A stretch of 56,225 nt of DNA, taken from a virus. Lineage: Duplodnaviria; Caudoviricetes. This document shows, piece by piece, positions 1 to 56,225 of the stretch. The stretch is taken from IMG/VR virus record IMGVR_UViG_3300044614_000423, positions 1 through 56,225 of that record; one strand, 5' to 3'. Below the pieces are notes generated by a model, which was not told where the DNA came from, did no database searches, and saw only the letters and a program-made list of their open reading frames with translations. Position numbers and translations under genes: made by a program. Each line of letters starts with the position of its first letter. The stretch's first letter is position 1.

Positions 1-2
1 GC

Positions 3-251
3 GATACAACGGGTGTAATATACGCTGGCGCGGCGAATCTCGCCGGGTATCAGTTACTTACTGGTGGCACAGCCGGGGAAATCGTATTCCGCGACGGTGG
101 AGCATCCGGTACTGTACTTATGCGGGTTAATATCTCTGCTTCGCCGACCAATCCGTTTTCGACGCTGATTCCCGGCAACGGTATTCGCTTCAACACCAAC
201 ATTCACGTCACGTTGCCCACGGCGGCGGCGGTGACGATTTTCTGCGGCTAA
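3..251 (+). CDS. Partial (5' truncated) small putative virion protein
   Basis: Open frame from the window edge: DTTGVIYAGAANLAGYQLLTGGTAGEIVFRDGGASGTVL...IPGNGIRF...TIFCG*, with TAA at 249-251. Not in the ORF track. Lies in the structural cluster. Confidence 0.75.
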   Translation, partial: DTTGVIYAGAANLAGYQLLTGGTAGEIVFRDGGASGTVLMRVNISASPTNPFSTLIPGNGIRFNTNIHVTLPTAAAVTIFCG

Positions 252-253
252 TC

Positions 254-781
254 ATGCCGAGCAAATCACCAGCTCAGCATCGATTGATGCAAGCCGCCGC
301 TCACACTAAGGGCGGTTTTGGTGGTGTACCTCAAAAGGTCGGTAAAGAATTCATCCGAGCTGACGAGGGTAAAAAATTCAAAGATGGCGGGCTGTATGAT
401 AACATTAATGCGAAACGTGCTAGAATCGCTGAAGGCTCTGGCGAAAAAATGCGCCGAGTCGGTAGCAAAGGTGCGCCAACGGCCGAAGCCTTCAAACAGT
501 CAGCAAAAACCGTCCGAATGAAGGATGGTGGCCCGAGTCTTGCAATAGGTCGAGGCGAGAAGCTCCCGGTCAGTAAAGGGGCGGGATTGACAGAAAAGGG
601 TCGGGCAAAGTATAATCGGGAGACTGGCAGTAATCTGAAAGCTCCACAGCCCCAAGGGGGACCTCGTCGAGATTCATTTTGTGCTAGGATGGAGGGCAAT
701 CCGGGGCCTCTTAAGGACGATCAAGGTCGCCCAACCCGTAAAGCCGCATCACTTAAACGTTGGAATTGCCCGGGGTGGTAA
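254..781 (+). CDS. Basic phage protein of three small modules joined by FKDGG/MKDGG; C-terminal module resembles DUF6321
   Basis: 175 aa, K/R/G rich. C-terminal GRAKYNRETGSNLKAPQP..RRDSFCARM..LKRWNC is typical of DUF6321-like phage proteins (recognised from memory). Confidence 0.75.
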   Translation: MPSKSPAQHRLMQAAAHTKGGFGGVPQKVGKEFIRADEGKKFKDGGLYDNINAKRARIAEGSGEKMRRVGSKGAPTAEAFKQSAKTVRMKDGGPSLAIGRGEKLPVSKGAGLTEKGRAKYNRETGSNLKAPQPQGGPRRDSFCARMEGNPGPLKDDQGRPTRKAASLKRWNCPGW

Positions 782-784
782 CAA

Positions 785-1858
785 ATGGCAACATCTGGGA
801 CAGTAGGATTAACGACAATCAGCGTACAGAATCTGATTGACGACGCGGCGCGGGCTTCAGGTAAGCTCGCCGAGGAATTGACTGTCGAGCAAGTACTCTC
901 TTCCAAGCGTAACCTCTTCTACGTTCTCTCGTCCCTGATAAACAAGGGTATCCAGTACTTCGCGATCAAGAAGACTGTGATCGGACTGAATGCGGATCAA
1001 TATATTTACAACATGCCTGTGGGGTCCAACGACGCGCTTAACGTCTTGTACCGACAGATGGAAAGACCCTCCGGGAGTTACACATCTTCAGCGGGGGGAG
1101 TGGTAGCCAATGTATACGATAATGACACTGCGACGTATTGCCAGCAAACATCTGCCAATGGTAATATATCTGTTAACTACGGCGTTAGCAATCCTGTCTA
1201 CATTGGCTCCATTGGCATTTTACCATTCGTCAGTGGCGGTGGTAGTGCCACTTGGACGATAACGTACGAATACTCCGTAGACGGTTCCACGTGGAACACC
1301 CTTGAAAGCCTTGGCGCGATAGTCGTGTCGGACAATGAATGGGTATGGACTGACATCGATCCCGGACAGAATGTGATCGCATACCGCGTCCGGGCCTCCG
1401 GAGGTACTACGCTTGCGCTTCGTGAATTCTACCTTGGTAATAATAGCCGAGAGATTCAGATGGCCCGCCTGAACCGCGATGACTACACGAACCTGCCCAA
1501 TAAGAATTTTACGGCTAACCAACCCTATCAGTTTTGGTTCGACCGTACCATCCCAGTGCCCACGATCTATCTGTGGCCAGTGCCTTCGGACCCGTTCATC
1601 CAGATGACGGTCTGGTACTCGGCACAAGTCGAGGACGTCGGGGCACTCTCGGGCGAACTCGCAATCCCCGATCGCTGGCTCCTCGCGGTGGAGTCGATGT
1701 TGGCCCACCGGATGTCACTTATTCTCCCTGCCGTGCCACTGGACCGTGTGAAGTACCTTGAAGGCCAAGCCGACCGGAATTTCAACGACGCGGAGCAAGA
1801 GGAGCGCGATAAGTCCCCGATCTACTGGGCACCGAATATCTCGGTGTACACGTCGTAA
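785..1858 (+). CDS. Putative head-tail adaptor with inserted discoidin-like beta domain
   Basis: 357 aa. Helical N-terminus, IYLWPVP motif, central YSVDGSTW beta segment; position in the structural module. Confidence 0.6.
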   Translation: MATSGTVGLTTISVQNLIDDAARASGKLAEELTVEQVLSSKRNLFYVLSSLINKGIQYFAIKKTVIGLNADQYIYNMPVGSNDALNVLYRQMERPSGSYTSSAGGVVANVYDNDTATYCQQTSANGNISVNYGVSNPVYIGSIGILPFVSGGGSATWTITYEYSVDGSTWNTLESLGAIVVSDNEWVWTDIDPGQNVIAYRVRASGGTTLALREFYLGNNSREIQMARLNRDDYTNLPNKNFTANQPYQFWFDRTIPVPTIYLWPVPSDPFIQMTVWYSAQVEDVGALSGELAIPDRWLLAVESMLAHRMSLILPAVPLDRVKYLEGQADRNFNDAEQEERDKSPIYWAPNISVYTS

Positions 1859-2232
1859 TGCCGATATTTCTCGACACCACAGGGCTGACTTCGGTAGCCA
1901 TCGGTGTGTGCGACCGGTGCAAGATGAAATACGCGTTCGTGCGCCTCGGACCCGACCCCAATTTCCCCGGACTCCGGGTATGCGACACGGGATGCCGGGA
2001 CCAGTTTGACCCGTACCGTCTGCCAGCTCGAAAGACTGAGCGCATTAACCTCCGCTTTCCACGCCCCGACGTTAGTGTGGCGGCGAACGATAATTACCTG
2101 ATGACTGGTAGCCAGTCAATGGACGGCTCCAGCCAGTTCCAGATTTCGACGGAGGGGAATACGCAGACGCCGTCGACCAACGGCAACCGGGACACAATCG
2201 CTCCGAGTCCACCCAACAATACGAGTACTTAA
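1858..2232 (+). CDS. Cys-rich hypothetical phage protein
   Basis: CDRC...CDTGC motifs; start overlaps the upstream stop (TAATG). Confidence 0.7.
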   Translation: MPIFLDTTGLTSVAIGVCDRCKMKYAFVRLGPDPNFPGLRVCDTGCRDQFDPYRLPARKTERINLRFPRPDVSVAANDNYLMTGSQSMDGSSQFQISTEGNTQTPSTNGNRDTIAPSPPNNTST

Positions 2233-4386
2233 ATGTCAGCACAAGTAGCCATTACCCAACTCCCCGCCGCTGGTGCGATAACTGGTACTGAGGCGGTTCC
2301 GATCGTACAAAACGGTGTGACGGTTCAGACGACTACGGGTGCGATCTCGGCGTCACCGTCGCAGACTTACCAGTACCTGACCGCGATCCAAACAGCCGCG
2401 TTACCTAACAGCCGATACTTGTCCAGTAGTACCGGAATCGGGCTGACAAACGGAGGTGCGCAGGGTCCTTTGACTATTTCGCTTAATGGTACATCGGGTA
2501 GCCTTGAAGCCGCGAGCGATGGTATCGTCGTAAAAGCCAGCGGGGTGATTATCCCGCGCACGCTTACTGCTTCCGGCACTGGCATTACTGTGACGAACGG
2601 TAGCGGAGTATCGGGGAACCCTACTGTAGCCCTTTCCGGACTCCCCGCCGCACTTGCTTCGGCCAGCGGTACGGGACTCTTGAATATTGTTAGCGGCACA
2701 TCAATCGGGAGCGTTTCGATTCTTGGCACTGCGAATCAAGTCACCGTGGCCAACGGGAACGCTTCGGCCGGTAGTCCAACGATCTCGATCGCGGACAATG
2801 CTATACTGCCCGGGACTGGGTCGATGACTATCCCGAGGGGGACAACAGCTCAGCAACCCGGGGGTTCGGACGGCCAATTCCGGTTCAACACGACTACTTC
2901 AACCTTCGACGGTTACGCGGCCGGGTCTTGGAGGCAGTTTTCGCTGGCCGGTGGCGTAACATCTTTTAGTGCTGGATCAACGGGCTTGACGCCCTCAACT
3001 GGTACTTCAGGCGCGATAACACTTGGCGGCACACTCAATGTAGCGAGTGGCGGTACTGGGGCAAATACCTTGACCGGATATGTATATGGTAACGGTACGG
3101 GTGCGATGACCGCCAGCACTACGATACCTACGACGAATTTGTCGGGCACTGTTACCAACGCACAGCTCGCCAATAGCGCGATCACGATCAACGGATCCTC
3201 TGTAAGTCTCGGCGGCTCTGTGGCCGTGACTGCCACGGCTACGAATGCATTAACAATCGGTACGGGTCTATCCGGTACGTCCTACAACGGATCGGCTCCA
3301 GTCACGATTGCGATCGATTCGACCGTAGCCACGTTGACTGGCACACAAACGCTGACTAATAAGACTATCAGCGGCTCTACTAACACTCTGTCAAACATCG
3401 CCAACGCTAGCTTGACCAACTCGTCATTGACGATTGGTACGACAGCAATCGCTTTGGGCGCATCTAGCTTGACGCTTGGTGGTCTAACATCTGTCGCTGT
3501 CACGCAAGATCCTACCTCTGCGCTTCAATTGGCGACCAAACAATACGTGGATGCTGTAGCTGAAGGTCTTCATGTCCATGCGGCTTGCGCGGCGGCGACC
3601 ACAGGAACGCTCGCATCAATCACAGGTGGCACAGTAACGTACAATAACGGTACTGCTGGTGTAGGAGCTACCCTAACGCTGTCTGTAGCTTTGACCACGC
3701 TAGATGGTTACACCTTGCTCAATGGCGACCGAGTTCTTGTGAAGAACGAAGCCACACAAGCGAACAATGGTATCTACACATGGGCTACAGGTGGCACGGT
3801 TCTAACTCGTGCTACTGACTTCGACACCGCTGTCGAGATGGCCAGTGGTGACTTCACCTTCATCACTAACGGTACGCTGTACGCAAACACTGGATGGGTT
3901 CAAACTGACCCTGTGACTACGGTAGGCACAAGCCTTGTGGTTTGGGTGCAGTTTTCTGGCGCAGGCGCATACACCGCTGGCACTGGCCTGACGTTGACTG
4001 GTACACAGTTCAGCATCACCAACACTGCCGTTACAGCCACTTCGTATGGCTCTGCTACTCAAGTAGGTACATTTACTGTCAATGCTCAAGGTCAACTGAC
4101 AGCGGCAGGAAACACTACAGTAACACCTGCGGTGGGATCTATTACTGGATTGGGTACTGGTGTAGCATCGGCTCTAGCGGTCAACGTAGGCTCTGCTGGC
4201 GCTTTTGTAACGTTCAATGGCGCGTTGGGTACACCGAGTTCTGGTACAGTTACGAATCTGACTGGTACTGCATCGATTAATATTAACGGAACTGTGGGTG
4301 CGACGACACCTACGACTGGCGCATTTACTACTGTAGCCGCGACAACAGTAACAGCAACAACTGGCATCTTTGGAGGAACATTCTAA
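2233..4386 (+). CDS. Tail fibre-like structural protein
   Basis: 717 aa G/T/S/A-rich beta repeats; ATKQYVD, DRVLVKNE..NGIY and RATDFD segments typical of phage fibres. Confidence 0.8.
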   Translation: MSAQVAITQLPAAGAITGTEAVPIVQNGVTVQTTTGAISASPSQTYQYLTAIQTAALPNSRYLSSSTGIGLTNGGAQGPLTISLNGTSGSLEAASDGIVVKASGVIIPRTLTASGTGITVTNGSGVSGNPTVALSGLPAALASASGTGLLNIVSGTSIGSVSILGTANQVTVANGNASAGSPTISIADNAILPGTGSMTIPRGTTAQQPGGSDGQFRFNTTTSTFDGYAAGSWRQFSLAGGVTSFSAGSTGLTPSTGTSGAITLGGTLNVASGGTGANTLTGYVYGNGTGAMTASTTIPTTNLSGTVTNAQLANSAITINGSSVSLGGSVAVTATATNALTIGTGLSGTSYNGSAPVTIAIDSTVATLTGTQTLTNKTISGSTNTLSNIANASLTNSSLTIGTTAIALGASSLTLGGLTSVAVTQDPTSALQLATKQYVDAVAEGLHVHAACAAATTGTLASITGGTVTYNNGTAGVGATLTLSVALTTLDGYTLLNGDRVLVKNEATQANNGIYTWATGGTVLTRATDFDTAVEMASGDFTFITNGTLYANTGWVQTDPVTTVGTSLVVWVQFSGAGAYTAGTGLTLTGTQFSITNTAVTATSYGSATQVGTFTVNAQGQLTAAGNTTVTPAVGSITGLGTGVASALAVNVGSAGAFVTFNGALGTPSSGTVTNLTGTASININGTVGATTPTTGAFTTVAATTVTATTGIFGGTF

Positions 4387-7300
4387 TGGCACAAGCAGGC
4401 TACACGCCCATATCTCTCTACTACAGCACGACTGCATCTGCTGTTCCTACTGCTGGTAACCTCGCTTCAGGCGAGTTGGCGATCAACATTACCGACGGTA
4501 AGCTGTACTACAAGAACAACTCTGGTGTAGTGACTCTGCTTGCTGGTGCAACGGCTGGCCCCGCTGGTGGCTCTAACACTCAAGTTCAGTTCAACTCTTC
4601 TGGTGTGTTGGCTGGTGATGCAGACTTCACATTCAACGGCACTTCTGTAACAATGGCTAACGATGCCTTGATTAGTGGAATGACTGTTGGTAAAGGTACG
4701 GGCGCTGTGTCTACCAATACTGTAGTAGGAAATGCGGCTCTTTTTCTAAATACTACTGGAGCAAGTAACGTAGCCGTTGGTATAAACGCACTCCAATCAA
4801 ATAGTAGTGGAAGTAATAACGTTGCTGTTGGTCAAAATTCTCTTATAGGAAACACAACTGGTTCAAGCAATACCGCTATTGGTAGAGATGCTCTTGTGTT
4901 TAACACTACAGCATTTAACAACACCGCTGTTGGCTACCAAGCTGGGTACAGCAACACTACAGGCACAGGACTTGTTGTACTTGGAAAGACTGCTGGTTAC
5001 GGCAACACCACAGGATCATACAATGTGTTCGTTGGTTTGGAGTCTGGATACACCAACAGCACAGGCGCAAGCAATACTGGCGTAGGTACAGCGGCTTTGT
5101 TTGCAAATACTACAGGTGGACAGAATACAGCCCTTGGTAGAGATGCACTTGTTTCTAACACCACAGCATCATCTAACACAGCCGTTGGTTACCAAGCGGC
5201 TTACAGCAACACAACTGGCTCATTTAATACTGCTGTGGGTAATCAAGCCGGGTATTTAAATACGACAGGAGTAGAGAGTGTTTATATTGGTCGGACAGCT
5301 GGATACAGTAACACGACTGGTAACTACAACTCTGCTCTTGGTGCTGGTGCGTTAGCAAATAACACCACAGCATCTAACAACACTGCTGTAGGTTATCAAT
5401 CGCTTTATGCAAATGCAACTGGCGCTCGGTCAACCGCTGTCGGTCATTCCGCTTTGTATAGCTCTACTGTTAGTGATAACACGGGTATTGGATATTTTGC
5501 GGGTTATTCAATAAGCTCTGGTCAATACAACCTTGCAGTTGGCGGCGGTGATGGCGCAACTGGCTCTACCCTTTCCAACAACACTACAGGCTCAAACAAC
5601 ACTGCGCTTGGTTTCCAAGCACTTCGCTCCAACACCACAGCATCTAGCAACACTGCTGTAGGTTATCAGGCGGGGTACAGCAATACCACTGGCGCATCCA
5701 ATACGGTGCTTGGGGGAACTGCGTTTTACTCAAATACTGCGGGGTTTAATAACACTGCCGTGGGTCGCAATGCCATGTATTTAAACACTACAGGCAATTC
5801 AAATGCGGCTTTTGGCATGGGTGCTTTGGGAAATAACACCATAGGTGTAAATAATACCGCTTTAGGCAAAGATGCGCTTAACGCTAACACCACTGAATCT
5901 AGTAATACTGCGGTCGGTTTTCAAGCTGGTTACTCAAATACAACTGGTTTGTATTTAACTGCTGTTGGTTCTTCCGCACTTTTTTCATGCACAACTGGTC
6001 TTCAAAATAATGCCTTTGGCATTAACACTTTGTATAGCACAACCACTGGTAGTTACAACACTGCGTTTGGTAGTCAAGCAATGTTGTTTAATACCACAGG
6101 TTTTAATAACACGGCAATTGGTTATAAAGCTCTTTACAACAACACAACAGCCGCATACAACACTGCCGTAGGATTTGAGGCGGGAATTGTTAACACGACT
6201 GGACTAATTACAGCGTTCGGTTCGCAAGCCTTGTATTCCAATACAACAGGTGTTGGAAACGTGGCGGTTGGTGGTTATACAACTGGAACAAATTATGCGG
6301 CTCTTACATTTAACACCACTGGCTCGTATAACACAGCTATGGGTACAGGCGCACTTCAAGGCAACACCACAGCAATCAACAATACCGCTGTTGGTTATCA
6401 GGCGGGGTATAGCAATACTATAGGCGAAAGCAACGTAGCTTTGGGTTTTCAAGCTGGATATAGCAATACTACTAGTGGTGGAAATACTACAGTTGGCGCT
6501 CAAGCTGGTCTTGGAAATACTGCTGACAACATTGTTGCAATTGGCGGTAGTGCGCTTCGCAACAATACGGGCGCAGGAAACACTGCGGTAGGTTCTACCA
6601 CTCTTCAAATCAACACATCTGGCATTGCGAATACAGCAGTTGGAACTTATCTAGGCGGTTCTTATTTTGGGGCGCTGTATGCAAACACCACTGGTTCATA
6701 CAATAATGCTTTCGGTGTTGGTACACTTGTAAATAACACCACAGCATCAGCAAACAATGCTTTTGGTTATGCGGCTTTAGCTACAAACACTACTGGCCCA
6801 AGCAATTCAGCGTTTGGCCATGCGGCATTGGTAGCCAACACTACTGGTGGAGAAAATGTCGCATTCGGTCATACAGCCCTGCAAGCCAACACTACAGGTT
6901 CTGTTAATTCCGTTTTGGGCTATCAGGCGTTGTATAGCAACCAAGCGAACTCAGGTAATGTTGCGATTGGCGCTCAAGCAGGCTACAGCACAGTACGAGC
7001 AAACAACAACACTTTTGTCGGCTATCAATCGGGTTACTATTTTAACTTCGGGTCTAGCGTAAACGCTTTCAACACATTTATTGGTGCGGGTGCTGGATCA
7101 CAAATAACAACTGGTCTTAAAAATGTCGTCCTTGGTTCCTACAACGGCAACCAAAATGGCGTAGACATTCGCACATCAAGCAACAACATCGTGATATCTG
7201 ATGGGGATGGAAATTTACGGGGTTATCATGTTGGAAACCAATGGCAATGGATTGCGGGAGGTAATGGTTCTACTACTGTAACTTGGGATGGCAGTGAATT

Positions 7301-7745
7301 TTTTCCAACTCCGGATAACACTGTAAAACTTGGATTTCCGTCATATCGTTGGACAACTGTTTATGCAACGACAGGCACAATTAACACATCAGATGTAAAT
7401 CAAAAGCAAGACATTGCTTTGCTTGATGACGCTGAAAAACGTGTTGCCATTGCAATTAAATCACTCATCAAAAAATATCGTTTCAAAGATGCTGTTGCTC
7501 AAAAGGGTGATGCCGCCCGTATTCACGTTGGTGCTATTGCTCAAGATGTACAAGCCGCTTTTGTTGCTGAAGGTTTAGACCCTACTCGATATGCTTTGTT
7601 CTGCTCTGACACTTGGTATGAAGTTGATGGGAAAGCGGGTATGCCCTCTGACCCATACACAGCAGAAACAGAAGGCGCTATTGAAGTCACTAGACTTGGA
7701 TTGCGCTACGAACAACTCTTGGCATTTGTAATTGCCGCACTTTAA
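4386..7745 (+). CDS. Long tail fibre/spike with NTAVG beta-roll repeats and C-terminal intramolecular chaperone (peptidase S74-like)
   Basis: 1119 aa. Dozens of ~14-aa NTAVGxxAxxxNTT repeats; C-terminal TSDVNQKQDI...HVGAIAQDV...GLRYEQL auto-cleavage chaperone signature. Confidence 0.85.
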   Translation: MAQAGYTPISLYYSTTASAVPTAGNLASGELAINITDGKLYYKNNSGVVTLLAGATAGPAGGSNTQVQFNSSGVLAGDADFTFNGTSVTMANDALISGMTVGKGTGAVSTNTVVGNAALFLNTTGASNVAVGINALQSNSSGSNNVAVGQNSLIGNTTGSSNTAIGRDALVFNTTAFNNTAVGYQAGYSNTTGTGLVVLGKTAGYGNTTGSYNVFVGLESGYTNSTGASNTGVGTAALFANTTGGQNTALGRDALVSNTTASSNTAVGYQAAYSNTTGSFNTAVGNQAGYLNTTGVESVYIGRTAGYSNTTGNYNSALGAGALANNTTASNNTAVGYQSLYANATGARSTAVGHSALYSSTVSDNTGIGYFAGYSISSGQYNLAVGGGDGATGSTLSNNTTGSNNTALGFQALRSNTTASSNTAVGYQAGYSNTTGASNTVLGGTAFYSNTAGFNNTAVGRNAMYLNTTGNSNAAFGMGALGNNTIGVNNTALGKDALNANTTESSNTAVGFQAGYSNTTGLYLTAVGSSALFSCTTGLQNNAFGINTLYSTTTGSYNTAFGSQAMLFNTTGFNNTAIGYKALYNNTTAAYNTAVGFEAGIVNTTGLITAFGSQALYSNTTGVGNVAVGGYTTGTNYAALTFNTTGSYNTAMGTGALQGNTTAINNTAVGYQAGYSNTIGESNVALGFQAGYSNTTSGGNTTVGAQAGLGNTADNIVAIGGSALRNNTGAGNTAVGSTTLQINTSGIANTAVGTYLGGSYFGALYANTTGSYNNAFGVGTLVNNTTASANNAFGYAALATNTTGPSNSAFGHAALVANTTGGENVAFGHTALQANTTGSVNSVLGYQALYSNQANSGNVAIGAQAGYSTVRANNNTFVGYQSGYYFNFGSSVNAFNTFIGAGAGSQITTGLKNVVLGSYNGNQNGVDIRTSSNNIVISDGDGNLRGYHVGNQWQWIAGGNGSTTVTWDGSEFFPTPDNTVKLGFPSYRWTTVYATTGTINTSDVNQKQDIALLDDAEKRVAIAIKSLIKKYRFKDAVAQKGDAARIHVGAIAQDVQAAFVAEGLDPTRYALFCSDTWYEVDGKAGMPSDPYTAETEGAIEVTRLGLRYEQLLAFVIAAL
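4700..7150 (+). repeat. Degenerate ~42-bp (14-aa) tandem coding repeats in the tail fibre
   Basis: Repeated NT(A)VGYQAGYSNTTG units; near-identical DNA copies such as aacaccacagcatcta(a/g)caacactgctgtaggttatca at ~5361 and ~5631. Confidence 0.85.
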
Positions 7746-7762
7746 CCCCTGAAAGGAAAATC

Positions 7763-7984: not shown

Positions 7985-8029
7985 CGGGAAGCCACCACCC
8001 GACCTTGGTGGCGCATTAAAGGAAACATC

Positions 8030-10113: not shown

Positions 10114-10115
10114 GA

Positions 10116-17200: not shown

Positions 17201-19651
17201 CTGGGTCAGGCACTCGAAGGTACTGGGCAAAAGCTCGAGATACCCGGTGTCACTCAAGCCACTGAGAATTTCTGGAACGATATCCAAGGGGCGGATACGT
17301 ACGCTGGAAAGGCGGCCGCCGCGATCAGGTCCGTTCTCAACAACCCATTGGTGCTCACTCAAGTCGCTAAAGAAGGCCTCCAAGAGGTGCTTCCGATCGT
17401 TACCGGTGGTGCGGTATTTAAAATACTAGGTAAAGGCGCAGGTATCGCTACTGACGTTCTAATGAACGCTTCGGAATCCATGGGTTCGCAATCTCGCCAA
17501 AAGTTTAATGAAGAGATCGCCAAGGGCACACCAGTCGATGAGGCTGAGAGGCTGGCCAACGCTGACGGATGGAAGGCGTTTGCTATTACGACTGTTACAG
17601 CGGGACTTGCCGATGCGTCGCTTGTCAAAGGTTACGAAAAAGCGATGGAGAAGTTATTTGGCAAGACTACCACGTCGGTCGGCAAAGAGTGGGCGGAAGA
17701 AGGTTTCGAAGAACTGGCGGTTGCACTTGCTACCGGTGATGACCTTGCGACCGCTATGTCAAAATCTATTGCGGGTAGCACCATAGGCTCTAAAACCTCT
17801 GGTACATTCACTGCTGGTTCTAGCGTCTCCGCAGATATTCAACAAGCATTCGCGTCCGAAGGCCTCACATCCTCCGATGGATCATTCCGTCCCGAAACTA
17901 TTACTAAAATCACCGATGCGAGCACGGCGGGTGCTACTAACACCACTCCCGATGTGGTGACTGGCGGCGCAGATACCGTTGCGGGCACAGATTTCTCGAC
18001 GATCTTCTTGAATACTGGAGATTTAACGCAAGCCATTGATACATCAATTGGCTCCGCGATTAACAGTGGTGTCGATCCAAGCGTCGCGATCACATCAGTC
18101 ATCAACGCCGCGAACAGTGTTGGGGCTGACCCGAACACGGTGGCTGTTGCCGCCGTCAATGCCGCCACAACTGCCACTACTGCACCGTCAACGGCCACTA
18201 CTGCGCCAGCTACGGCCACTACTGCGCCAGCTACAGTGACTACTGCACCGTCAACGGCCACTACTGCGCCAGCTACGGTGACTACTGCACCGTCAACGGC
18301 CACTACTGCGCCAGCTACTGCGACACCGACAACGGCCGGTATTGATACGACTGTGTCGAACACCGTTGCTACTGCCATCAGCTCCGGGACAAATCCGGCC
18401 ACTGCTGTCAATTCCGCTGTTACTACTGCAGTAAGTGCTGGTACTAATCCGGTCGTGGCTATTGGCTCCGCTGTGACCGCGGCAGTAAACGCTGGGACAG
18501 ATCCAACAACTGCTGTGACTGCGGCGGTGACTGCGGCTACAAATTCGGGCGTTGACATGACTGTTGCGACTAATGCCGCGAACAACGCCGCGAACAATGC
18601 CGCGACTGCGGCCGCCGGGATCACTACCAACACTACGGTGGATTCCGGCGCAAATACGACGACGACTACTACGACCAACGCGAATAATAATACAACGACT
18701 ATAGTCAGCACGAACACGAACACGGGCGCAACGACCACTACTAACACTAACAACAACACCGGGATAGACACCAGCATCACCCAAAACCCTGATACCAACA
18801 CTACGAACAAAACGGTAACCAACACTAACACCGATTTGACAGTTAGTGTGAACATTGACGACTCCACCGGCGCAGTCGTAAGTATTAATGGCCCCGGTAC
18901 TGTGATCGACAAAGACACTGTGGTGGTCGATGGTACTCCGATTGACGTGAATACCGGTGAAATTCTGTCACCGGAAGAAGTCGAGAAGCGCAAAAAGGCG
19001 GCAGTCAATAAGACCCCTGTCAGCCCAAGTAGACCCCCCAGCGGAACAGGCAATATAACCATTACTGAACCCACCTACGCCGCCAAAAAGAGTGACATTG
19101 CCGAGACTTGGCTCGGAGGTCGATTCCGTAACATCGCGCCCCTCGCTGGACTCGGCGCATTACTTCCACAAGACTCACCTATGTTTCAAGAAGCACAAGC
19201 AATCTCGGCACTACGCCGCGCCTCTGGGATCGATAACGAGGCCAAGACCCCCGAGGCCGACTATTACGCCTATGGCACTGAACCCTCCTACGCCAAGGTC
19301 CTTGAACCGTTCATGAATGGGGGGACTGTACAGAAATATGCCGAAGGTGGTAAAATAATGGCTTCTCCACTAATGGCGGCGTCGGGCGGCGATGTACCAC
19401 ACAAAGGCTCACACTACGTACAGGGCGCGGGCGGCGGTCAGGACGATCTCATCCCCGCCCAGCTCGCCGACGGCGAGTACGTGTTCGACGCGGATATCGT
19501 GGCGGCACTGGGTGACGGCTCGAACAAAGAGGGTGCCAAAAAGCTGGACGCGATGCGGGAAGCGATCCGCAAGCACAAGCGCGGCGGTTCCATCAAATCA
19601 ATTCCTCCAGCGGCTAAATCGCCCTTGGCATATCTGAAAGGCGTATTATGA
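14288..19651 (+). CDS. Very large putative internal virion/ejection protein
   Basis: 1787 aa: EQAR coiled-coil repeats, T/A/N low-complexity region, C-terminal xxGG motifs and a DDLIPAQLADGEYV domain. Confidence 0.7.
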   Translation: MALRDFNIRYDFEDNGDFNFFGDAYDLFPGLNTSPLAQVAPAPAETDYFANQFADDFKQTPVSPLASVAAESAPSIPQSFIDAEQRAYEDQQMVFRDSQARAQALAEQQAEAQRQAEIAAEAARRQAIEDAFYEQQARAQAQQQAEAQRQAEQQAEAQRQAQLAQQAEAQRQALLAQQQAEAARQAELAEQARQAQLAEQRAYEDQQRTYLENQARQEAARVAAEQEAARQGALRQAEAQRLAAEQEAARVAAEQEVARQGALQQAEAARQAELAQQAEAARSAAVADAPASRSLSESAGALERATSELGDSRDDPVSRVDSIDRRNAESEARFEANLTSEDRKNIETANKLATQILDQKLTDKWTGQGYGNAEANARDMGKILASIGITDIKDFGKITKTVDAEVTPQYERTISGYDNEGNPIVDSKIVGYTDQSGNTVDASLVKTEFVSDGETGRTAYMAPVGKQEVFGNKLTGQEVPNTYSERQTGNFFGGTFAGKGNTGYGVQFDAKGNPYFYTVGASSNDLANLMQDLGPLGQIAIAVATGGLSIPQQIAANLAINVLSGKDIGDAIKGAAISYAGAQIPGLEAIKEGTSFLNGIDSTGVLANAFQNAAVSGGTALLSGRDIGDAMMKGAISGGTSGAVNALMGNIDGFKDLTPAQKNMAINAVTGVISGQPLDQIVINTAIAAANNAIAQAKNENTVIDPYFTPSTDTTSTGAGVFVQAKQAGATDAEALSAANAVTGASTNVSAPATTPDVDTTATNTQVTNNTVTGGTGSDNATTSTIGGFDQGEFEGVDRAIEQQSRNTEVERLVTAYEKTTGKSFAKLTDKEVAALAYTANSMTVDELKNASIQDILNKVPAIVGKDDQGRWVDDKGFAYDERGFRYAPGNTVPMFDVVGVGNTGTPTAAQNLDTAGNNLVNWANTLEGTSGDVVRQTLSTLIGAGGEQIADLGTALANMGVAERYNLLVQLGQALEGTGQKLEIPGVTQATENFWNDIQGADTYAGKAAAAIRSVLNNPLVLTQVAKEGLQEVLPIVTGGAVFKILGKGAGIATDVLMNASESMGSQSRQKFNEEIAKGTPVDEAERLANADGWKAFAITTVTAGLADASLVKGYEKAMEKLFGKTTTSVGKEWAEEGFEELAVALATGDDLATAMSKSIAGSTIGSKTSGTFTAGSSVSADIQQAFASEGLTSSDGSFRPETITKITDASTAGATNTTPDVVTGGADTVAGTDFSTIFLNTGDLTQAIDTSIGSAINSGVDPSVAITSVINAANSVGADPNTVAVAAVNAATTATTAPSTATTAPATATTAPATVTTAPSTATTAPATVTTAPSTATTAPATATPTTAGIDTTVSNTVATAISSGTNPATAVNSAVTTAVSAGTNPVVAIGSAVTAAVNAGTDPTTAVTAAVTAATNSGVDMTVATNAANNAANNAATAAAGITTNTTVDSGANTTTTTTTNANNNTTTIVSTNTNTGATTTTNTNNNTGIDTSITQNPDTNTTNKTVTNTNTDLTVSVNIDDSTGAVVSINGPGTVIDKDTVVVDGTPIDVNTGEILSPEEVEKRKKAAVNKTPVSPSRPPSGTGNITITEPTYAAKKSDIAETWLGGRFRNIAPLAGLGALLPQDSPMFQEAQAISALRRASGIDNEAKTPEADYYAYGTEPSYAKVLEPFMNGGTVQKYAEGGKIMASPLMAASGGDVPHKGSHYVQGAGGGQDDLIPAQLADGEYVFDADIVAALGDGSNKEGAKKLDAMREAIRKHKRGGSIKSIPPAAKSPLAYLKGVL
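18176..18322 (+). repeat. 7 x 21-bp tandem repeat encoding TTAP(S/A)T(A/V)
   Basis: actactgcaccgtcaacggcc / actactgcgccagctacggcc-type units read directly. Confidence 0.9.
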
Positions 19652-31366: not shown

Positions 31367-31633
31367 ATGGCAACATACGATAACACCAATTCGGGCATGA
31401 TGGCCCGTAACGAGCGTCGCACCACCGACAAGCACCCCGAATTCTCCGGCTCGATCAACGTCGAGGGCGTGGATTATTGGCTCTCGGCTTGGGTTAATGA
31501 GGGCAAGGCTGGTGGTAAGATGGAAGGCAAAAAGTACTTCTCCATCAAGCTGTCGCGCAAAGAGGGCGGCGTTGGCACTTCCGGCCGATCAGCGAGTGAT
31601 TCGAGCTACGAATCTGACGACATCCCGTTCTGA
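31367..31633 (+). CDS. Small SSB-like protein
   Basis: 88 aa, beta-rich, ends in the SSB-type tail DDIPF. Confidence 0.7.
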   Translation: MATYDNTNSGMMARNERRTTDKHPEFSGSINVEGVDYWLSAWVNEGKAGGKMEGKKYFSIKLSRKEGGVGTSGRSASDSSYESDDIPF

Positions 31634-33468: not shown

Positions 33469-33473
33469 AGGTA

Positions 33474-34601
33474 ATGGAAAAGATTAGAATCGTAGTCGAT
33501 CTGCAATACGGGAGCACCGGCAAGGGGCTGATCGTAGGCAAGATCGCTGAAGATGAAGCACCTGATACGGTGATCACCGCGTGGGCACCCAATGCGGGGC
33601 ACACGTACATCAGCAAAGATGGGCGCAAGTTTATTCATACACACCTTGCCAACGGCATCGTGTCGCCCAAGCTCCGTCGAGTGCTCCTCGGCCCCGGCTC
33701 GCTGATCAACCCCCGGCAACTGCTGGCAGAGATCGCCGCGTGTTCGGACTTGCTCGGAAAGGTAGAGATTCTGATTCACCCACATGCCGCTGTAGTGACC
33801 GAGCGTCACATTGAGGAAGAAGCGGGACCGATGACCAAGATCGGCTCGACCAAAAAGGGCGTGGGTGCCGCGATGATTCAACGCATCCGACGCAATCCGG
33901 ACGACCTGAACATCGCCGCCGACTGCGAGGAGCTTGCAAAATACATAGTCACAGTGGCTACCTACCGCGCCGCACTGCGTGACGCCAAGAGTGTGCTAGT
34001 AGAGGGCGCACAGGGCTACGGGTTGTCGATGTACCACGGCTTTTACCCCTACACCACTTCGCGTGATGTGAGCCTGTGGCAAATCCTCGCCGATTGCGGC
34101 ATTCCGCACGACCTACTCCCCGAGGTATTCGGCGATCTGATGATGAACGTGATCGGCACATGCCGCACTTATCCGATCCGAGTGGCCAATCGATTCGACA
34201 CCCACGGGACGCAAGTCGGCTACTCTGGACCTTGCTACGGTGACCAGCTGGAAATCACGTTTGAGGAGATCGGACAGAAGACCGAGCTGACCACAGTGAC
34301 CAAGCTCCCGCGCCGCATTTTTACGTTTAGCCGCAAGCAGATTGAAGAGGCGATCGAGTACAATGGTGCTCGGGAGATCTTCCTGAACTTCGTTAATTAT
34401 TGCAGGTCCGAGGACGAGGTGCGGGATATTGTGGAGTCGATTGAGCGCAGTAAAGACACAGTGGTGCGCTGGATTGGACTCGGACCCGCTTATAAGGACG
34501 TGTACTCGATGCCGCAATACGGTCCCGAGGCACGAATGGCACGAATTCTTGAACTTTGGAGAGCATATGCTACAGGTAGAATCAACAGTACACACGGATG
34601 A
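33474..34601 (+). CDS. purZ: N6-succino-2-amino-dAMP synthetase PurZ
   Basis: PurA fold with GSTGKG instead of GDEGKG, NAGHT, EGAQG, TTVTKLPRR, and NFVNY in place of the GTP-binding TKLD; start ATG 33474. Confidence 0.93.
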   Translation: MEKIRIVVDLQYGSTGKGLIVGKIAEDEAPDTVITAWAPNAGHTYISKDGRKFIHTHLANGIVSPKLRRVLLGPGSLINPRQLLAEIAACSDLLGKVEILIHPHAAVVTERHIEEEAGPMTKIGSTKKGVGAAMIQRIRRNPDDLNIAADCEELAKYIVTVATYRAALRDAKSVLVEGAQGYGLSMYHGFYPYTTSRDVSLWQILADCGIPHDLLPEVFGDLMMNVIGTCRTYPIRVANRFDTHGTQVGYSGPCYGDQLEITFEEIGQKTELTTVTKLPRRIFTFSRKQIEEAIEYNGAREIFLNFVNYCRSEDEVRDIVESIERSKDTVVRWIGLGPAYKDVYSMPQYGPEARMARILELWRAYATGRINSTHG

Positions 34602-36116: not shown

Positions 36117-36295
36117 AAACCAAGCAAGAGATCAAAGAAGAAATCATTGAGCTATACGGAGCTACCACGGCTTTGAGGGAGGCAATGAACATACTCCACG
36201 CACAAAGCATGGAGAAAAGTAAACAGATGATGGCACTGAATCACATGCTAAAAGAAATGGATGATGACCACGGTATTGAAGGGGCGGGTGTATGA
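36113..36295 (+). CDS. Hypothetical coiled-coil protein
   Basis: AAGGAG RBS, 60 aa. Confidence 0.65.
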   Translation: MKTKQEIKEEIIELYGATTALREAMNILHAQSMEKSKQMMALNHMLKEMDDDHGIEGAGV

Positions 36296-36855
36296 GTTTA
36301 ACAGTATACGAACAGCTCCGCGCTTGCCACGTCAAGCGGTGGCACATCGTGCAGACGTCGCGGGAGCAGACGCTGGCCGAGCACTCTTTCGCAGTCGCGG
36401 TGATCGCGGGATCCCTCGCGGCGGCTATGCGATGGAAGGGCCTGTTGCATGATTCGGGTAAATTGAAGCTCCTGCAGTGGGCACTCGCGCACGACGTAAT
36501 CGAGGTGCGCACCGGAGATATGCCGACGCCGTTCAAGCGTGACCTAGAAGCGGTAGGGGGTAAGGGTATCGTGGAAAAGGCTGAAGACCGAGTTGACAGC
36601 GATACAATGGCGGCTTACCGTCAGGTGAAAGGGACAGATATAGAGACCATAGTCAAGCTCGCGGACCAGATCGAGGCGATCTTTTTCCTGCAGGACAACG
36701 GAGTCGGGGCGCACGCCAAGCAAGTGCTCGATGGCCTTCGTGCGATCCTGTCCGACATGGTGAATGAGGCTGAGCGTTTGCACCCAGCGCTAAACGTTCG
36801 CGAATCGGTTCGCCGCGTGTGCAACGATATAGGAATTACAGGGGGATGGTTATGA
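36292..36855 (+). CDS. datZ: HD-domain dATP triphosphohydrolase DatZ
   Basis: YEQLRACHVKRWHIVQT..AEH, HD..EVRTGDMPTP, KLAD..EAIFFL..NGVGAHA; closely resembles cyanophage S-2L DatZ as recalled; within the purZ cluster. Confidence 0.87.
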   Translation: MSLTVYEQLRACHVKRWHIVQTSREQTLAEHSFAVAVIAGSLAAAMRWKGLLHDSGKLKLLQWALAHDVIEVRTGDMPTPFKRDLEAVGGKGIVEKAEDRVDSDTMAAYRQVKGTDIETIVKLADQIEAIFFLQDNGVGAHAKQVLDGLRAILSDMVNEAERLHPALNVRESVRRVCNDIGITGGWL

Positions 36856-45910: not shown

Positions 45911-46570
45911 ATGGCCTTACCTGACGAACGCAAACTGCTAAAAGACATCGGACCTGAGACGATCGCCGAATACGAGCGTCGTGCCGGGATTTCTGTGCAA
46001 ACACTGCTGGACGCCGTGGTGCGTGACCGCGTGCGACACCCGCCCAGTCCCTCGTGCCTTATGTCCCACTCTCCCACGTGCAACGACCCAAGCATCACGG
46101 CAACGGACGAGCTTGCACTACTTGAGGAGACAAAGGCGTACAAAATGCTACAGATTATCGCCGAATTCCGTGATGGTCCGCCCGAGTCGCGCTTTTCCTT
46201 ACGCCACGCTTACAACACGGCGGGCATCCATCGGCAAACGCTGATCGGCTGGCGCGGTGACCACAAGCTGTTCGACGGCATCATGGACAGCATTCAGGAA
46301 GAAATGGTCGATACGATGCGTGCCGAAGCGTACCGTCGCTCTGTCGTGGGACACGACGAGCCGATCGTGCATCAGGGCGTCAAAACGGGCGACACAGTGA
46401 AAAAGTTTAGTGATTCACTGCTCCAGTTCACGCTCATGGGGTACGACGCGAAATTCCGCTCGAAAGACGTCAACATGAACGTGTCGGGCCAGCTGGACTC
46501 GAACATCAATATTGAGGGTCTCCGTGATCGCCTTGCCCAACGTCTTAACTCGCGCTCAAAGGCGGAGTAA
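45911..46570 (+). CDS. terS: Terminase small subunit
   Basis: HTH-like GIHRQTLIGW, EAYRRSVVG, KFSDSLL; upstream of terL; start uncertain. Confidence 0.8.
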   Translation: MALPDERKLLKDIGPETIAEYERRAGISVQTLLDAVVRDRVRHPPSPSCLMSHSPTCNDPSITATDELALLEETKAYKMLQIIAEFRDGPPESRFSLRHAYNTAGIHRQTLIGWRGDHKLFDGIMDSIQEEMVDTMRAEAYRRSVVGHDEPIVHQGVKTGDTVKKFSDSLLQFTLMGYDAKFRSKDVNMNVSGQLDSNINIEGLRDRLAQRLNSRSKAE

Positions 46571-47960
46571 AAAGTCGACGATTGTCGACTCGGCGAACTG
46601 GCACGAGTTCGTGGACGAACTGTCGGACCGCGAAGCACTCGAACTCTTTTACGACTGGCAAACGTGGGCACGGCCCAACCAGCTTATTCCACCCGGGGAC
46701 GACTGGACCATCTGGATGATCCTCGCCGGACGTGGCTGGGGAAAGACCCGGTGTGGTGCCGAATTCGTGCGCTACCACGCCGAAAACGGACTAGCGGGCC
46801 GCATTGCACTGATCGCCGAGGACGCGGGCGACGCACGTGACGTTATGGTGGAGGGCGAGTCCGGCATTTTGGCCATCTCGCATCCCAAATGCAAGCCGGT
46901 ATTCGTCCCATCGAAGCGGCGACTCGAGTGGCCCAACGGTGCGATCGCCACGATCTATTCGGACAACGACCCCGAGACACTGCGGGGACCACAGCACGAT
47001 TTGGCGTGGGTGGACGAACTGGCGAAATTCCGCAACGCAGAAGATATGTGGTCCAACTTGATGTTCGGCCTGCGACTTGGGCAAAAGCCCCGCGTTTGCA
47101 TCACCACAACACCAAAACCCATCCCGATCGTCCGTCGCTTGATTAACGAGGACCGCGTGTACGTAACCACGGGCACGACACACGAGAATTTTAATAACCT
47201 CGCACCCACGTTTCGCGACGAAATCGTGTCGCAGTACGAGGGCACACGCATTGGGCGGCAAGAGCTGTACGCGGAGGTCATTGACCCCGAAGACTACGGC
47301 ATCGTCAAGCGCGAGTGGTTCAAGCTGTGGGACGCGAACAAGCCACTGCCCGAATTCATTTATGTGCTCCAGTCTTACGACTGCGCGTACACGGAAAAGA
47401 CGCAAAACGATCCGACTGCGTGCTCAGTGTGGGGCATCTTTCGGCCGAATGAGGACACCGGACTTTGCGCGATGCTCATCGACTGCTGGGAGGACTTCCT
47501 CGCATACCCGGACCTGCGGCCCAAGATCATCGACGAGTACGGCTCCATCTACGGCGAACCCGGCAAAAAGGTGGACCTCGTGCTCGTGGAGGACAAAGCC
47601 TCGGGCATTAGCATTTTGCAGGACTTGCAACGTGCTGGTGTGCCTTGCCGCGCCTACAACCCGGGCCGCGCTGACAAAGTACAGCGTTTGCATTTGGTGG
47701 CAAACATCATTGCACATGGCCGCGTTTACATTCCCGAGTCGCTCGTCCACCGGGGCCAGCCACGCGATTGGGCAGAGCCGCTGGTGTCCCAAGTGTGCTC
47801 ATTCCCCGAGGCAGATCGGGACGACTTGACTGACACGCTGTCCCAAGCGTTGCGATTGCTAAAAGACATGTCATTCCTGCAGATCGATCCGATCCCACCG
47901 GACAACGATTACGTGGACGACGAATATCGACCCAACCGAGGCAACCCTTATGCCCAATAA
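46524..47960 (+). CDS. terL: Terminase large subunit
   Basis: AGRGWGKT, LRGPQ..WVDE, TTTP, YDCAY, EDKASG, DDLTD; start uncertain (GTG 46524 has a GAGGG RBS). Confidence 0.95.
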   Translation: MIALPNVLTRAQRRSKKSTIVDSANWHEFVDELSDREALELFYDWQTWARPNQLIPPGDDWTIWMILAGRGWGKTRCGAEFVRYHAENGLAGRIALIAEDAGDARDVMVEGESGILAISHPKCKPVFVPSKRRLEWPNGAIATIYSDNDPETLRGPQHDLAWVDELAKFRNAEDMWSNLMFGLRLGQKPRVCITTTPKPIPIVRRLINEDRVYVTTGTTHENFNNLAPTFRDEIVSQYEGTRIGRQELYAEVIDPEDYGIVKREWFKLWDANKPLPEFIYVLQSYDCAYTEKTQNDPTACSVWGIFRPNEDTGLCAMLIDCWEDFLAYPDLRPKIIDEYGSIYGEPGKKVDLVLVEDKASGISILQDLQRAGVPCRAYNPGRADKVQRLHLVANIIAHGRVYIPESLVHRGQPRDWAEPLVSQVCSFPEADRDDLTDTLSQALRLLKDMSFLQIDPIPPDNDYVDDEYRPNRGNPYAQ

Positions 47961-54634: not shown

Positions 54635-55549
54635 ATGGCCGCTCCAATGCGCAGTACCGACTTTCGTAGTATCGTCGAGCCAATTCTGAACGAATGCTTC
54701 GACGGTATCTACGAACAGCGTAAAGATGAATGGTCCCGTGTCTTCCGCGAAGAACAGGGCATTCCCCGTAACTACCATGAAGAACCCGTCTTGTACGGAT
54801 TTGGTGCCGCTCCCCAGTTGCCTGATGGTACTCCCGTCAGCTACCAACAGGGTGGTGTGCTCTTCTTGCAACGCTATGTGTACAATGTGTATGGCCTCGC
54901 TTTCGCATTGACCAAAGTGTTGGTGGAAGACGGCGACCACATTCGTATCGGTCAGGTGTACGCTAAGCATTTGGCTCAATCATTGATTGAGACTAAAGAG
55001 ACTCTGTCCGCAAACGTTTTGAACCGCGCTTTCAACGGTTCTTACGTTGGTGGTGACGGCGTGTCGCTTATCAACACCTCACACCCAATCGTGAATGGTA
55101 CATTCTCTAACCAACTGTCTACAGCCGCAAATCTGTCGCAAACATCGCTTGAGCAGATGTTGATTCAGATTCGCCAAGCAGTGGACAACAACGGCAAGAA
55201 GATCCGTTTGGTGCCCCGCCAGTTGGTGGTCGCCCCCGGCAACATCTTCCAAGCTGAAGTTCTGTTGAAGTCAGTGCTCCGCGCTGGTACAACGAACAAC
55301 GACATCAACCCCGTCAAGTCTATCGGCTTGTTGGACGAAGGTGCCGCAGTCTTGAGCCGTTTGACCAATGCTAACGCATGGTGGGTCCAGACCGATGCTC
55401 CCGAGGGCTTGAAGCTCTTGATGCGTCGTGCATTGGAGAAGACCATGGAAGGTGATTTCGAGACCGACTCGATGCGCTACAAGGCAACTGAGCGTTATCA
55501 AGTGGGCTGGACTGATCCCCGTAGCCTCTACGGTACAGCTGGCGTCTAA
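54635..55549 (+). CDS. Major capsid protein
   Basis: AAGGAGG RBS; DGVSL...HP, PRQLVVAP, YKATERY..GWTDPR..YG. Confidence 0.88.
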   Translation: MAAPMRSTDFRSIVEPILNECFDGIYEQRKDEWSRVFREEQGIPRNYHEEPVLYGFGAAPQLPDGTPVSYQQGGVLFLQRYVYNVYGLAFALTKVLVEDGDHIRIGQVYAKHLAQSLIETKETLSANVLNRAFNGSYVGGDGVSLINTSHPIVNGTFSNQLSTAANLSQTSLEQMLIQIRQAVDNNGKKIRLVPRQLVVAPGNIFQAEVLLKSVLRAGTTNNDINPVKSIGLLDEGAAVLSRLTNANAWWVQTDAPEGLKLLMRRALEKTMEGDFETDSMRYKATERYQVGWTDPRSLYGTAGV

Positions 55550-55558
55550 ACCAATGTG

Positions 55559-55572
55559 GGGGGTTCGCCCCC
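55559..55572 (+). other. UUCG tetraloop hairpin after the capsid gene
   Basis: GGGGG-TTCG-CCCCC without a U tract; possible mRNA stabiliser or attenuator. Confidence 0.55.
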
Positions 55573-55594
55573 TGCTTCATTAAGGAGAAAGACA

Positions 55595-56044
55595 ATGGCA
55601 CAAACCTATATTGGTTCTACCCTGCGTGCAGGTTCTACAGCGTTGACTGACACAGTAGATGGCGGTTTCGTCGTCATGATGCAGACAGCTACTGTTACTA
55701 CAGCCTCTGCAGGTACTGCTACTAGCGTTACTGAAGTCCTTCCCGCAGGTTCACAAATCATCAACATCTTTATTGATACGATGGTTGACGAAGTCGTGGG
55801 TGGCGGTACAGCTACAGCAATTGCGGCAACGGTGGGTACAGCGGCGGCGGGCACTCAATATGTGTCTTCTACCGACGTCTTCGCTGGTGGTCGTTTTGTT
55901 CCGTCATTTACCACAGCCCAACTCGCGGCGATGGCGGATATCGGCACGAACATCAACGTCGTCCTCACGGTTGACCCTAACGGCACGATCAGCACTACTC
56001 AAGGCGTTTACCGCTTGACGGTTGTGTATGCTCAGAAACTCTAA
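55595..56044 (+). CDS. Putative capsid-associated protein
   Basis: AAGGAG RBS, ATG 55595; T/A/G-rich beta protein. Confidence 0.7.
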   Translation: MAQTYIGSTLRAGSTALTDTVDGGFVVMMQTATVTTASAGTATSVTEVLPAGSQIINIFIDTMVDEVVGGGTATAIAATVGTAAAGTQYVSSTDVFAGGRFVPSFTTAQLAAMADIGTNINVVLTVDPNGTISTTQGVYRLTVVYAQKL

Positions 56045-56055
56045 GGAGCACAATC

Positions 56056-56225
56056 ATGGGTGAATTCAAGCCGATGGTAAAAATGATGACCACTGAGCCT
56101 TCAGTTACTCTGAAGCTTAAAAAAGGTGGTTCTGCTACTCACAAGCGTATGCACGCTGAGGGTGCTAAAGAGGGCTTCAAACCCGTCAAGAAGATGGACG
56201 GTGGGATGATGGGCAGTATGGCGGG
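56056..56225 (+). CDS. Partial (3' truncated) basic protein with LKKGG/KMDGG motifs
   Basis: AAGGAG RBS; MGEFKPMVKMMTTEPSVTLKLKKGG...KKMDGGMMG runs off the window. Confidence 0.75.
   Translation, partial: MGEFKPMVKMMTTEPSVTLKLKKGGSATHKRMHAEGAKEGFKPVKKMDGGMMGSMA

Follow-up and report, generated by a model that had tools for sequence, protein, structure and literature searches.

Complete absence of CCWGG and GCWGC from the genome of a phage with a 2-aminoadenine pathway, and avoidance of restriction sites in related clades with and without purZ

The IMG/VR virus record IMGVR_UViG_3300044614_000423 (Duplodnaviria; Caudoviricetes), analyzed from position 1 to 56,225 and hereafter called the window, is a one-contig assembly of 56,225 bp that represents a complete phage genome, with a GC content of 54.5% and long open reading frames (ORFs) lying essentially all on the + strand. 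Pfam scanning of 49 ORFs of at least 100 aa, 14 of which were also compared with PHROGs, identified a large terminase, a capsid, SU10-type adaptors, a lysozyme, a primase, SNF2 and UvrD helicases, and a family A polymerase; a 24-kb portion of the genome had no megablast match among named phages. The phage has genes of the 2-aminoadenine (Z) pathway, namely PurZ, DatZ and a DpoZ-like polymerase (Table 1), as an initial annotation made by eye had supposed, and its genome contains not a single CCWGG or GCWGC site (W, A or T).

PurZ (2-aminoadenylosuccinate synthetase) was recognized by its structural relatives and by its discriminating residues. S-2L PurZ (7odx) scored 5.8e-84 and the phiVC8 entries for PurZ about 5e-79, whereas cellular PurA reached 3e-28 at best. 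Four residues specific for dGMP and ATP, S14 (Asp in PurA), T262, F295 and Y298 in phiVC8 numbering, as given in the accessible part of 10.1101/2025.10.22.683976, were all invariant in the PurZ alignment including the window protein, which has Y at position 12, like S-2L. Its identity to PurZ of the named phages S-2L, phiVC8, SH-Ab 15497 and PMBT28 was 44-50%. The ORF as called shares 76 nt with the polymerase gene and carries a 27-residue N-terminal extension absent from other PurZ proteins; judged from the alignment, the true start is probably near 33474, at a Met aligned with the other N termini. The best solved relative of the polymerase, 7PBK, is DpoZ of phiVC8 (PMC8599892, accessible part), compared with 6e-40 for Klenow. 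DatZ was assigned by sequence match, and its activity is predicted. No MazG-like family, and so no MazZ, was found by Pfam among the 49 ORFs; an ORF in the PurZ-DatZ interval (34598-34960, 120 aa) was considered as MazZ and rejected, as it matched no PHROG and no solved structure and did not resemble S-2L MazZ. Close by, 35266-35898 matched a PHROG annotated "ferredoxin" (2e-73), 37079-37948 encodes a histone-deacetylase-domain protein near PurZ and DatZ, and a 422-aa ORF within 34598-39185 has no family. Any of these four ORFs, the 120-aa one included, could be an unrecognized part of the Z pathway.

Table 1. Features of the 56,225-bp window referred to in the text
Feature	Coordinates	Strand	Remarks
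Tail-fibre and lysis segment	2465..12000		No GGWCC; RGCGCY kept; CCWGG and GCWGC absent
Tail fibre gene	4386..7745	+	GC 0.454; Peptidase_S74 C terminus; without GCWGC
DpoZ-like family A DNA polymerase	31633..33468	+	Pfam DNA_pol_A and 3'-5' exonuclease; 7pbk at 4e-135
PurZ (2-aminoadenylosuccinate synthetase)	33393..34601	+	Structural relatives; discriminating residues
DatZ-like HD phosphohydrolase	36292..36855	+	Pfam YfbR-like/HD; DatZ 6zpa (5.9e-18) is the best solved relative
Large terminase	46512..47960	+	Pfam Terminase_6N/6C; query for collecting relatives
Major capsid protein	54635..55549	+	88% identical to capsid of purZ-negative MW202545.1

Exact counting over the whole window returned zero for CCAGG, CCTGG, GCAGC and GCTGC, and these are exactly the pentamers that are absent, 4 of 1,024. 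The expected totals were 94-107 for CCWGG and 138-146 for GCWGC. Markov models of orders 0/1/2/3 predicted 77/47/39/35 CCAGG, 64/53/55/42 CCTGG, 77/68/67/58 GCAGC and 64/77/80/60 GCTGC, leaving all four pentamers far below expectation at every order. When synonymous codons were shuffled 200 times within 66 crude + strand gene calls, which cover 96% of the genome, 107 ± 8 CCWGG (minimum 87) and 138 ± 10 GCWGC (minimum 108) were expected. The initial annotation had reported the complete absence and estimated over 100 of each site; the counts bear out the former, and the estimate was about right. GCWGC and CCWGG also ranked first and second among the 3,328 palindromic IUPAC patterns scanned. The sites that had been listed as present were indeed found: CCSGG (144; S, G or C), GCSGC (301), GGWCC (116 vs 105-117 expected), GATC (332 vs 270 expected), and the A/T-containing hexamers GAATTC (28), AAGCTT (19) and CTGCAG (12), the three hexamers being at or above expectation. 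GCSGC exceeded the 211 expected from codon shuffling, as would be expected if W centres had turned into S.

EcoRII, PspGI and MvaI recognize CCWGG, and TseI and ApeKI recognize GCWGC. Further purged sites had been overlooked in the by-eye reading. All four forms of GRGCYC were absent (48-57 expected), as were GCCGGC (23-28 expected) and GGCGCC (22-27 expected), while CCGCGG occurred once (18477..18482; 23-26 expected), CGCGCG once (at 30843; 26-43 expected), GCGCGC three times (29562, 35432 and 53577; 25-38 expected) and RGCGCY 13 times (78-83 expected). We take the purged hexamers to be sites of BanII, NaeI, NarI, SacII, BssHII and HaeII. No purged word was found among 2,508 pairs of non-palindromic 5-/6-mers tested. 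GGTACC, a site with fixed A/T, occurred once as well (at 40179; 10-21 expected), and this depletion was specific to the window (127 observed and 108 expected across the PurZ clade described below). The gaps in this genome are ordinary in kind, very probably restriction-site avoidance, and unusually complete.

Within genes, the sites are avoided through the context of codons. None of 52 Pro-Gly pairs started with CCA or CCT, though these make up 36% of all Pro codons, and none of 189 Ala-Ala pairs started with GCA or GCT, though these make up 42% of all Ala codons. Likewise, not one of the 151 Leu/Gln codons in an NNC_GNN setting, and not one of the 111 in an NNG_CNN setting, was CTG or CAG, both codons being common outside these two risky contexts, and no xCC codon precedes Trp in the gene calls. 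Avoidance operates on the DNA itself, whichever of the three frames a site falls in, and is context-dependent rather than a codon bias. The initial annotation had described the same choice in Ala-Ala and Pro-Gly pairs, even in the AT-richer fibre gene. This held genome-wide, and for Ala-Ala also in the fibre gene, in which all 11 pairs start with GCG or GCC and GCA plus GCT make up 101 of 152 Ala codons; the Pro-Gly part was empty there, as the gene has no such pair. The fibre gene would be expected to contain 9.4 GCWGC (minimum 2 in 300 shuffles) and just 1.4 CCWGG.

Relatives were collected with the terminase as 80 IMG/VR loci of 79-100% terminase identity (the PurZ clade, 828 kb). The closest relatives contained no CCWGG and no GCWGC, as in the window, and avoidance was mosaic farther out. 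Three loci of 95-96% terminase identity, L017, L019 and L022, had 12/19, 13/16 and 49/61 GCWGC (observed/expected) and normal levels of RGCGCY, with CCWGG and GRGCYC still absent; L026 had 0/44 CCWGG and 105/56 GCWGC, L029 had 41/41 CCWGG and 0/49 GCWGC, and many loci of 80-85% identity had both sites. CCGCGG was nearly absent clade-wide (19/554). On a quick IQ-TREE terminase tree of 76 of 81 rows (five with terminase matches shorter than 400 residues were dropped), L017, L019 and L022 fell within the 27-row clade of the window (support 99), and each avoidance trait switched state several times. Of the 49 sites of L022, 41 lay in aligned coding sequence, where the window differed by 30 synonymous and 11 non-synonymous changes; 12 aligned sites of L017 corresponded to 11 synonymous changes and 1 non-synonymous change. 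Sites had been lost in the window at all five positions. PurZ was found in all 10 whole records of relatives, including those of L055 and L065, which have both CCWGG and GCWGC at or above expectation. Therefore, Z or the Z polymerase alone does not erase these words. The PurZ matches in the records G004, G005, G006 and G009 (of L034, L037, L055 and L029) contained one in-frame TGA or TAG each, probably because the alignment extends upstream of the true start.

These comparisons bear on whether biased mutation or repair, such as deamination after Dcm-type methylation or the error spectrum of DpoZ, eroded the words. CCWGG is a Dcm target (PMC4924334, accessible part). Yet such a bias would not remove both W forms completely in every frame, the sites were lost at all five positions, PurZ- and DpoZ-bearing L055 and L065 keep both sites, and GC-only hexamers are purged as well, all of which makes this explanation highly improbable. 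Rather, depletion beyond all nulls, its restriction to palindromes, its extent over all frames, the synonymous mode of loss and the mosaic among relatives indicate selection by restriction, and the gaps are very probably the outcome of avoidance driven by host Type II restriction. The view of the initial annotation that the gaps fingerprint restriction pressure was thus upheld by the null models, the mosaic relatives, the synonymous losses and the context-dependent codons.

The same virion genes occur in phages without the Z pathway. The closest named relative, MW202545.1 (Caudoviricetes sp.; 57,457 bp, GC 0.55), had 19 of the 66 window genes, all for virion or packaging, with identities of 59% for portal and 48% for terminase besides the capsid of Table 1. 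It has no PurZ, DatZ or DpoZ and nothing in common with the replication module of the window. Across its whole genome, CCWGG (1/132) and GCWGC (3/224) were purged as in the window; unlike the window, it also purges GGWCC (0/109), RCCGGY (0/60) and SAGCTS (0/86). Its early module is unrelated to that of the window and, according to its depositor, includes methyltransferase-like genes. The depositor annotated 8360-9889 of this genome (L087 in our set) as "type I site specific restriction modification protein," 9886-10704 as a ParB-like nuclease domain protein and 11742-12155 as a PacI-like restriction endonuclease, so that MW202545.1 may couple methylation of its own to site avoidance. A 1,787-aa ORF of the window (14288-19651), with no Pfam family, matched MW202545.1 over its last 63 residues only.

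Next, 80 loci retrieved with the MW202545.1 terminase (853 kb) were taken as the purZ-negative clade. PurZ, DatZ and DpoZ were absent from all 80 loci, and PurZ from all 11 whole records (MW202545.1 and 10 others, 5 of these at least 91% complete). CCWGG was avoided in 54 of the 80 non-Z loci compared with 43 of the 80 PurZ-clade loci, and GCWGC in 33 of 80 in each clade. As the purZ-negative clade purges both sites as often, Z is not the cause of the gaps, and the link to Z that the initial annotation had drawn is refuted in this respect. The comparison also bears on self-immunity, in which the phage would encode site-specific nucleases, for example for host DNA degradation, and would have lost their sites from its own genome. 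Total absence would fit this, and many early genes are without family. However, Pfam scanning of 49 ORFs, with PHROGs for 14 of them, revealed no nuclease or methyltransferase family, at least seven distinct specificities would be required, and the purZ-negative clade purges the same sites with an unrelated early module; we regard self-immunity as scarcely credible.

The two clades differed at other sites. GGWCC was avoided in 64 of 80 non-Z loci but in none of 80 PurZ loci, the pooled observed/expected counts being 145/1434 and 2192/1983, respectively. SAGCTS was avoided in 52 of 80 non-Z and 6 of 63 PurZ loci, and WCCGGW in 26 of 39 and 0 of 68. The pooled ratios in the non-Z and PurZ clades were 0.06 and 0.82 for CAGCTG, 0.35 and 1.65 for CTGCAG, 0.20 and 0.98 for GTGCAC, and 0.31 and 1.04 for TCGCGA. 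Of the RCCGGY forms, GCCGGC was low in both clades (PurZ 0.16, non-Z 0.20), whereas ACCGGT was low only without PurZ (0.98 vs 0.22). The contrast persisted when 65 PurZ and 33 non-Z loci matched for GC were compared, and at two GGTCC sites of the window's capsid gene MW202545.1 has synonymous alternatives. The sites purged in both clades that have no obligatory A:T pair were CCWGG, GCWGC, GCCGGC, GGGCCC and CCGCGG. In the GC-matched sets, GTAC was about two-fold over-represented in both clades (3056/1503 with PurZ, 1080/513 without), and GATC was over-represented too (1.23 and 1.44).

A further scan of bacterial and metagenome-assembled genomes (MAGs) with the capsid yielded loci L168-L195, with capsids 72-95% identical to that of the window. 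Terminase typing of nine of these, over at least 150 aligned residues, classed only L177, the other eight having a type 36-57% identical to both clades. Several more of these contigs had no CCWGG, for example L181 (0/58) and L189 (0/67). Twelve of the 28 capsid-bearing contigs lay in MAG bins labelled Betaproteobacteria or Burkholderiales, a weak lead to the host; the contigs were binned in MAGs of many phyla, and several of 50-63 kb look like mis-binned whole phage genomes. Caulobacter phage GB2A, which has no PurZ, was discarded as a control, being too far removed in host and GC content; it had 27/49 CCWGG and 136/127 GCWGC, with GCCGGC, CCGCGG and GGCGCC purged. A sampling or assembly artefact, such as recovery after restriction-enzyme enrichment, is the least probable of the explanations considered: an enzyme cocktail for the enrichment of Z-containing DNA does exist (10.1101/2025.10.22.683976, accessible part), but dozens of relatives that were assembled independently lack the same sites, and the cocktail enzymes do not cut DNA containing the deoxynucleotide of Z (dZ), so that the cocktail would not select against these sites.

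Published enzymology of dZ DNA was then compared with the clade contrast. In the accessible part of Yang et al. (Viruses 2026, PMC12944874), 53% of 147 enzymes were blocked or impaired on dZ-containing PCR DNA and 47% still cut it; one dZ within GGWCC prevented cutting by AvaII, whereas ApeKI cut dZ-containing GCWGC. Among the 18 enzymes illustrated there, only ApoI, BstYI, BsaI and SalI digested dZ DNA, so that, by elimination, PstI (CTGCAG), NruI (TCGCGA) and BamHI would not be full cutters. TseI is described as cleaving GCWGC with central A:A or T:T mismatches or with 2-aminopurine, apparently without base flipping (PMC3643589, accessible part). Four clade contrasts agree in direction with these reports, GGWCC, CTGCAG and TCGCGA being relieved in the PurZ clade and GCWGC not. 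In vitro protection was thus partial, and its split of W-centred sites into blocked (AvaII) and cut (ApeKI) is the split into kept and purged seen here. Yang et al. used PCR DNA and commercial enzymes, and the accessible text does not discuss site avoidance in Z phages; the word "avoidance" is absent from the companion preprint.

For CCWGG, PspGI and EcoRII-C check base-pair stability in addition to base identity, as far as the accessible part of PMC2577355 goes, so that a Z:T pair with three bonds could be a worse substrate for enzymes of this type, not an equal one. In the accessible part of PMC1950555, Ecl18kI (CCNGG) is the only enzyme said to cut just as fast when its site contains 2-aminopurine, and diaminopurine appears in the PspGI and EcoRII papers only in reference lists. 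The initial annotation had proposed that Z protects sites with a specified A and leaves those whose only A:T pair is the degenerate centre exposed, since enzymes of the EcoRII/PspGI type flip that pair out. As general rules, neither half survives: AvaII is blocked at W-centred GGWCC, which is avoided by no locus of the PurZ clade, while fixed-A GAGCTC is purged here, fixed-A GATC is purged in phiVC8 and PMBT28, and nearly half of the enzymes surveyed cut dZ DNA. The flipping rationale does not apply to GCWGC, judging by what is reported for TseI. What stands of the proposed blind spot is that ApeKI cuts dZ-containing GCWGC, that TseI tolerates 2-aminopurine and that the sister clade purges additional A/T-containing sites. 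Protection is specific to each enzyme.

The named Z phages offer a further comparison. S-2L, phiVC8, SH-Ab 15497 and PMBT28 have PurZ and DatZ in common with the window, and phiVC8 also a DpoZ-type polymerase, but they differ from it in virion type, host and the other sites purged. Three of them purge CCWGG too, namely PMBT28 (0/132), SH-Ab 15497 (2/74) and phiVC8 (3/65), whereas GCWGC is not among the 14 most depleted patterns of any of the four. GATC is purged in phiVC8 (4/148) and PMBT28 (2/205), CCGG in SH-Ab 15497, and CGCG and CCGCGG in S-2L. Phages T3 and T7, which have few EcoRII sites, are classical cases of palindrome avoidance. As in classical avoidance, Type II palindromes are depleted here through synonymous substitutions, and which palindromes are affected depends on the host. 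Unlike the classical cases, two 5-bp sites expected about 100 and about 140 times are at zero, at least five other specificities are purged too, and the window also carries a pathway for whole-genome base substitution.

Taken together, the data are likely to reflect classical avoidance in a phage that also carries the Z pathway, with Z relieving some A/T-containing sites; for the relief itself, the balance of evidence tips modestly in favour. In this mechanism, host Type II enzymes for CCWGG, GCWGC, GRGCYC, GCCGGC, GGCGCC, CCGCGG and GCGCGC-like sites would cut incoming phage DNA, and variants that lose sites, mostly by synonymous change, would survive until no site remained. Z would add a minor-groove amino group at every A:T pair and block only enzymes sensitive to that group, with no shielding possible at GC-only sites. 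GCWGC enzymes would tolerate changes of the central pair, and the CCWGG enzymes of the hosts would presumably tolerate Z too. Z would then remove the need to avoid GGWCC, CTGCAG, CAGCTG, GTGCAC, WCCGGW and ACCGGT, sites that purZ-negative relatives on the same virion chassis would have to avoid. We infer that both clades meet overlapping host enzymes and that tolerance of Z decides which sites stay purged.

Several observations weigh against this reading. GAGCTC, with fixed A/T, is purged in both clades (PurZ 0.09, non-Z 0.08), GGATCC is low in both (0.37 and 0.33) in spite of the BamHI result with dZ, and phiVC8 is short of GGWCC (9/64) within a wider depletion of GGNCC (24/129). No published dZ-DNA result for any CCWGG enzyme was found in the accessible literature, host restriction enzymes are the presumed selective agent, and the presence of 2-aminoadenine in virion DNA is deduced from the genes. 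Loci within a clade are related, so that per-locus Fisher values overstate significance; about 10 independent specificities remain per clade. In addition, GC-only CCCGGG (1.08 with PurZ vs 0.20 without) and CYCGRG (1.21 vs 0.40) differ between the clades, which Z cannot explain, and the host repertoires of the two clades thus differ at least partly.

These last contrasts would also suit restriction avoidance in which Z plays no part and the clades infect different hosts with different repertoires. Both clades purge CCWGG and GCWGC to the same extent, the tail fibres diverge strongly even inside the PurZ clade (31-61% identity over partial matches), and proven Z phages purge the fixed-A site GATC. 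But the sites purged in the non-Z clade alone are mostly A/T-containing (GGWCC, CAGCTG, CTGCAG, GTGCAC, WCCGGW, ACCGGT and TCGCGA), those common to both clades lack an obligatory A:T except for GAGCTC, GGWCC sharply separates the clades, both of them mosaics with respect to other sites, and the direction fits the published AvaII and ApeKI results. Avoidance without any contribution of Z is therefore unlikely, although it is the most substantial of the rival explanations.

The fibre region has a record of its own. In the tail-fibre and lysis segment, which contains the tail fibre, small ORFs, lysozyme and an adaptor gene, GGWCC was expected 12.0 times by a first-order Markov model or 5.5 times by codon shuffling (minimum 1 in 300); the resulting GGWCC-free gap of 9,537 bp is the largest in the genome, the next being 1,969 bp. 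RGCGCY was at 8/10.5 (observed/expected) inside the segment and at 5/66.6 in the rest of the genome. The avoidance history of this module seems to differ from that of the remaining genome, and a lineage exposed to GGWCC pressure may have been its source. A search of 5 PurZ and 5 purZ-negative complete genomes identified no donor and gave only partial matches at the identities cited above for tail fibres.

Since one virion chassis occurs with a Z or a non-Z replication module, the difference in purged sites may, tentatively and with slightly less than even confidence, be read as a natural map of Z shielding. Such a map would place GGWCC, CTGCAG, CAGCTG, GTGCAC, WCCGGW, ACCGGT and TCGCGA among the shielded sites, and CCWGG, GCWGC, GRGCYC including GAGCTC, and all GC-only sites among those not shielded. 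If it is true, the CCWGG enzymes of the hosts cut Z-DNA, selection on a defined set of sites weakens once the Z module is gained, and the segment at 2465-12000 is a recent import from a non-Z genome in which GGWCC has not yet been refilled.

No literature linking Z genomes to restriction-site avoidance was found in a search that lay outside subscription journals. In this phage, defence seems to be layered: CCWGG, GCWGC, GRGCYC and GC-only sites still need to be removed from the sequence despite Z, so that whole-genome base substitution is combined with sequence-level avoidance and does not replace it. Comparing the matched clades with and without purZ yields testable predictions as to which natural specificities Z defeats. 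This is relevant to why Z genomes evolved, to the reading of host restriction repertoires from uncultured phage genomes and to the choice of enzymes with which to enrich or diagnose Z-DNA.

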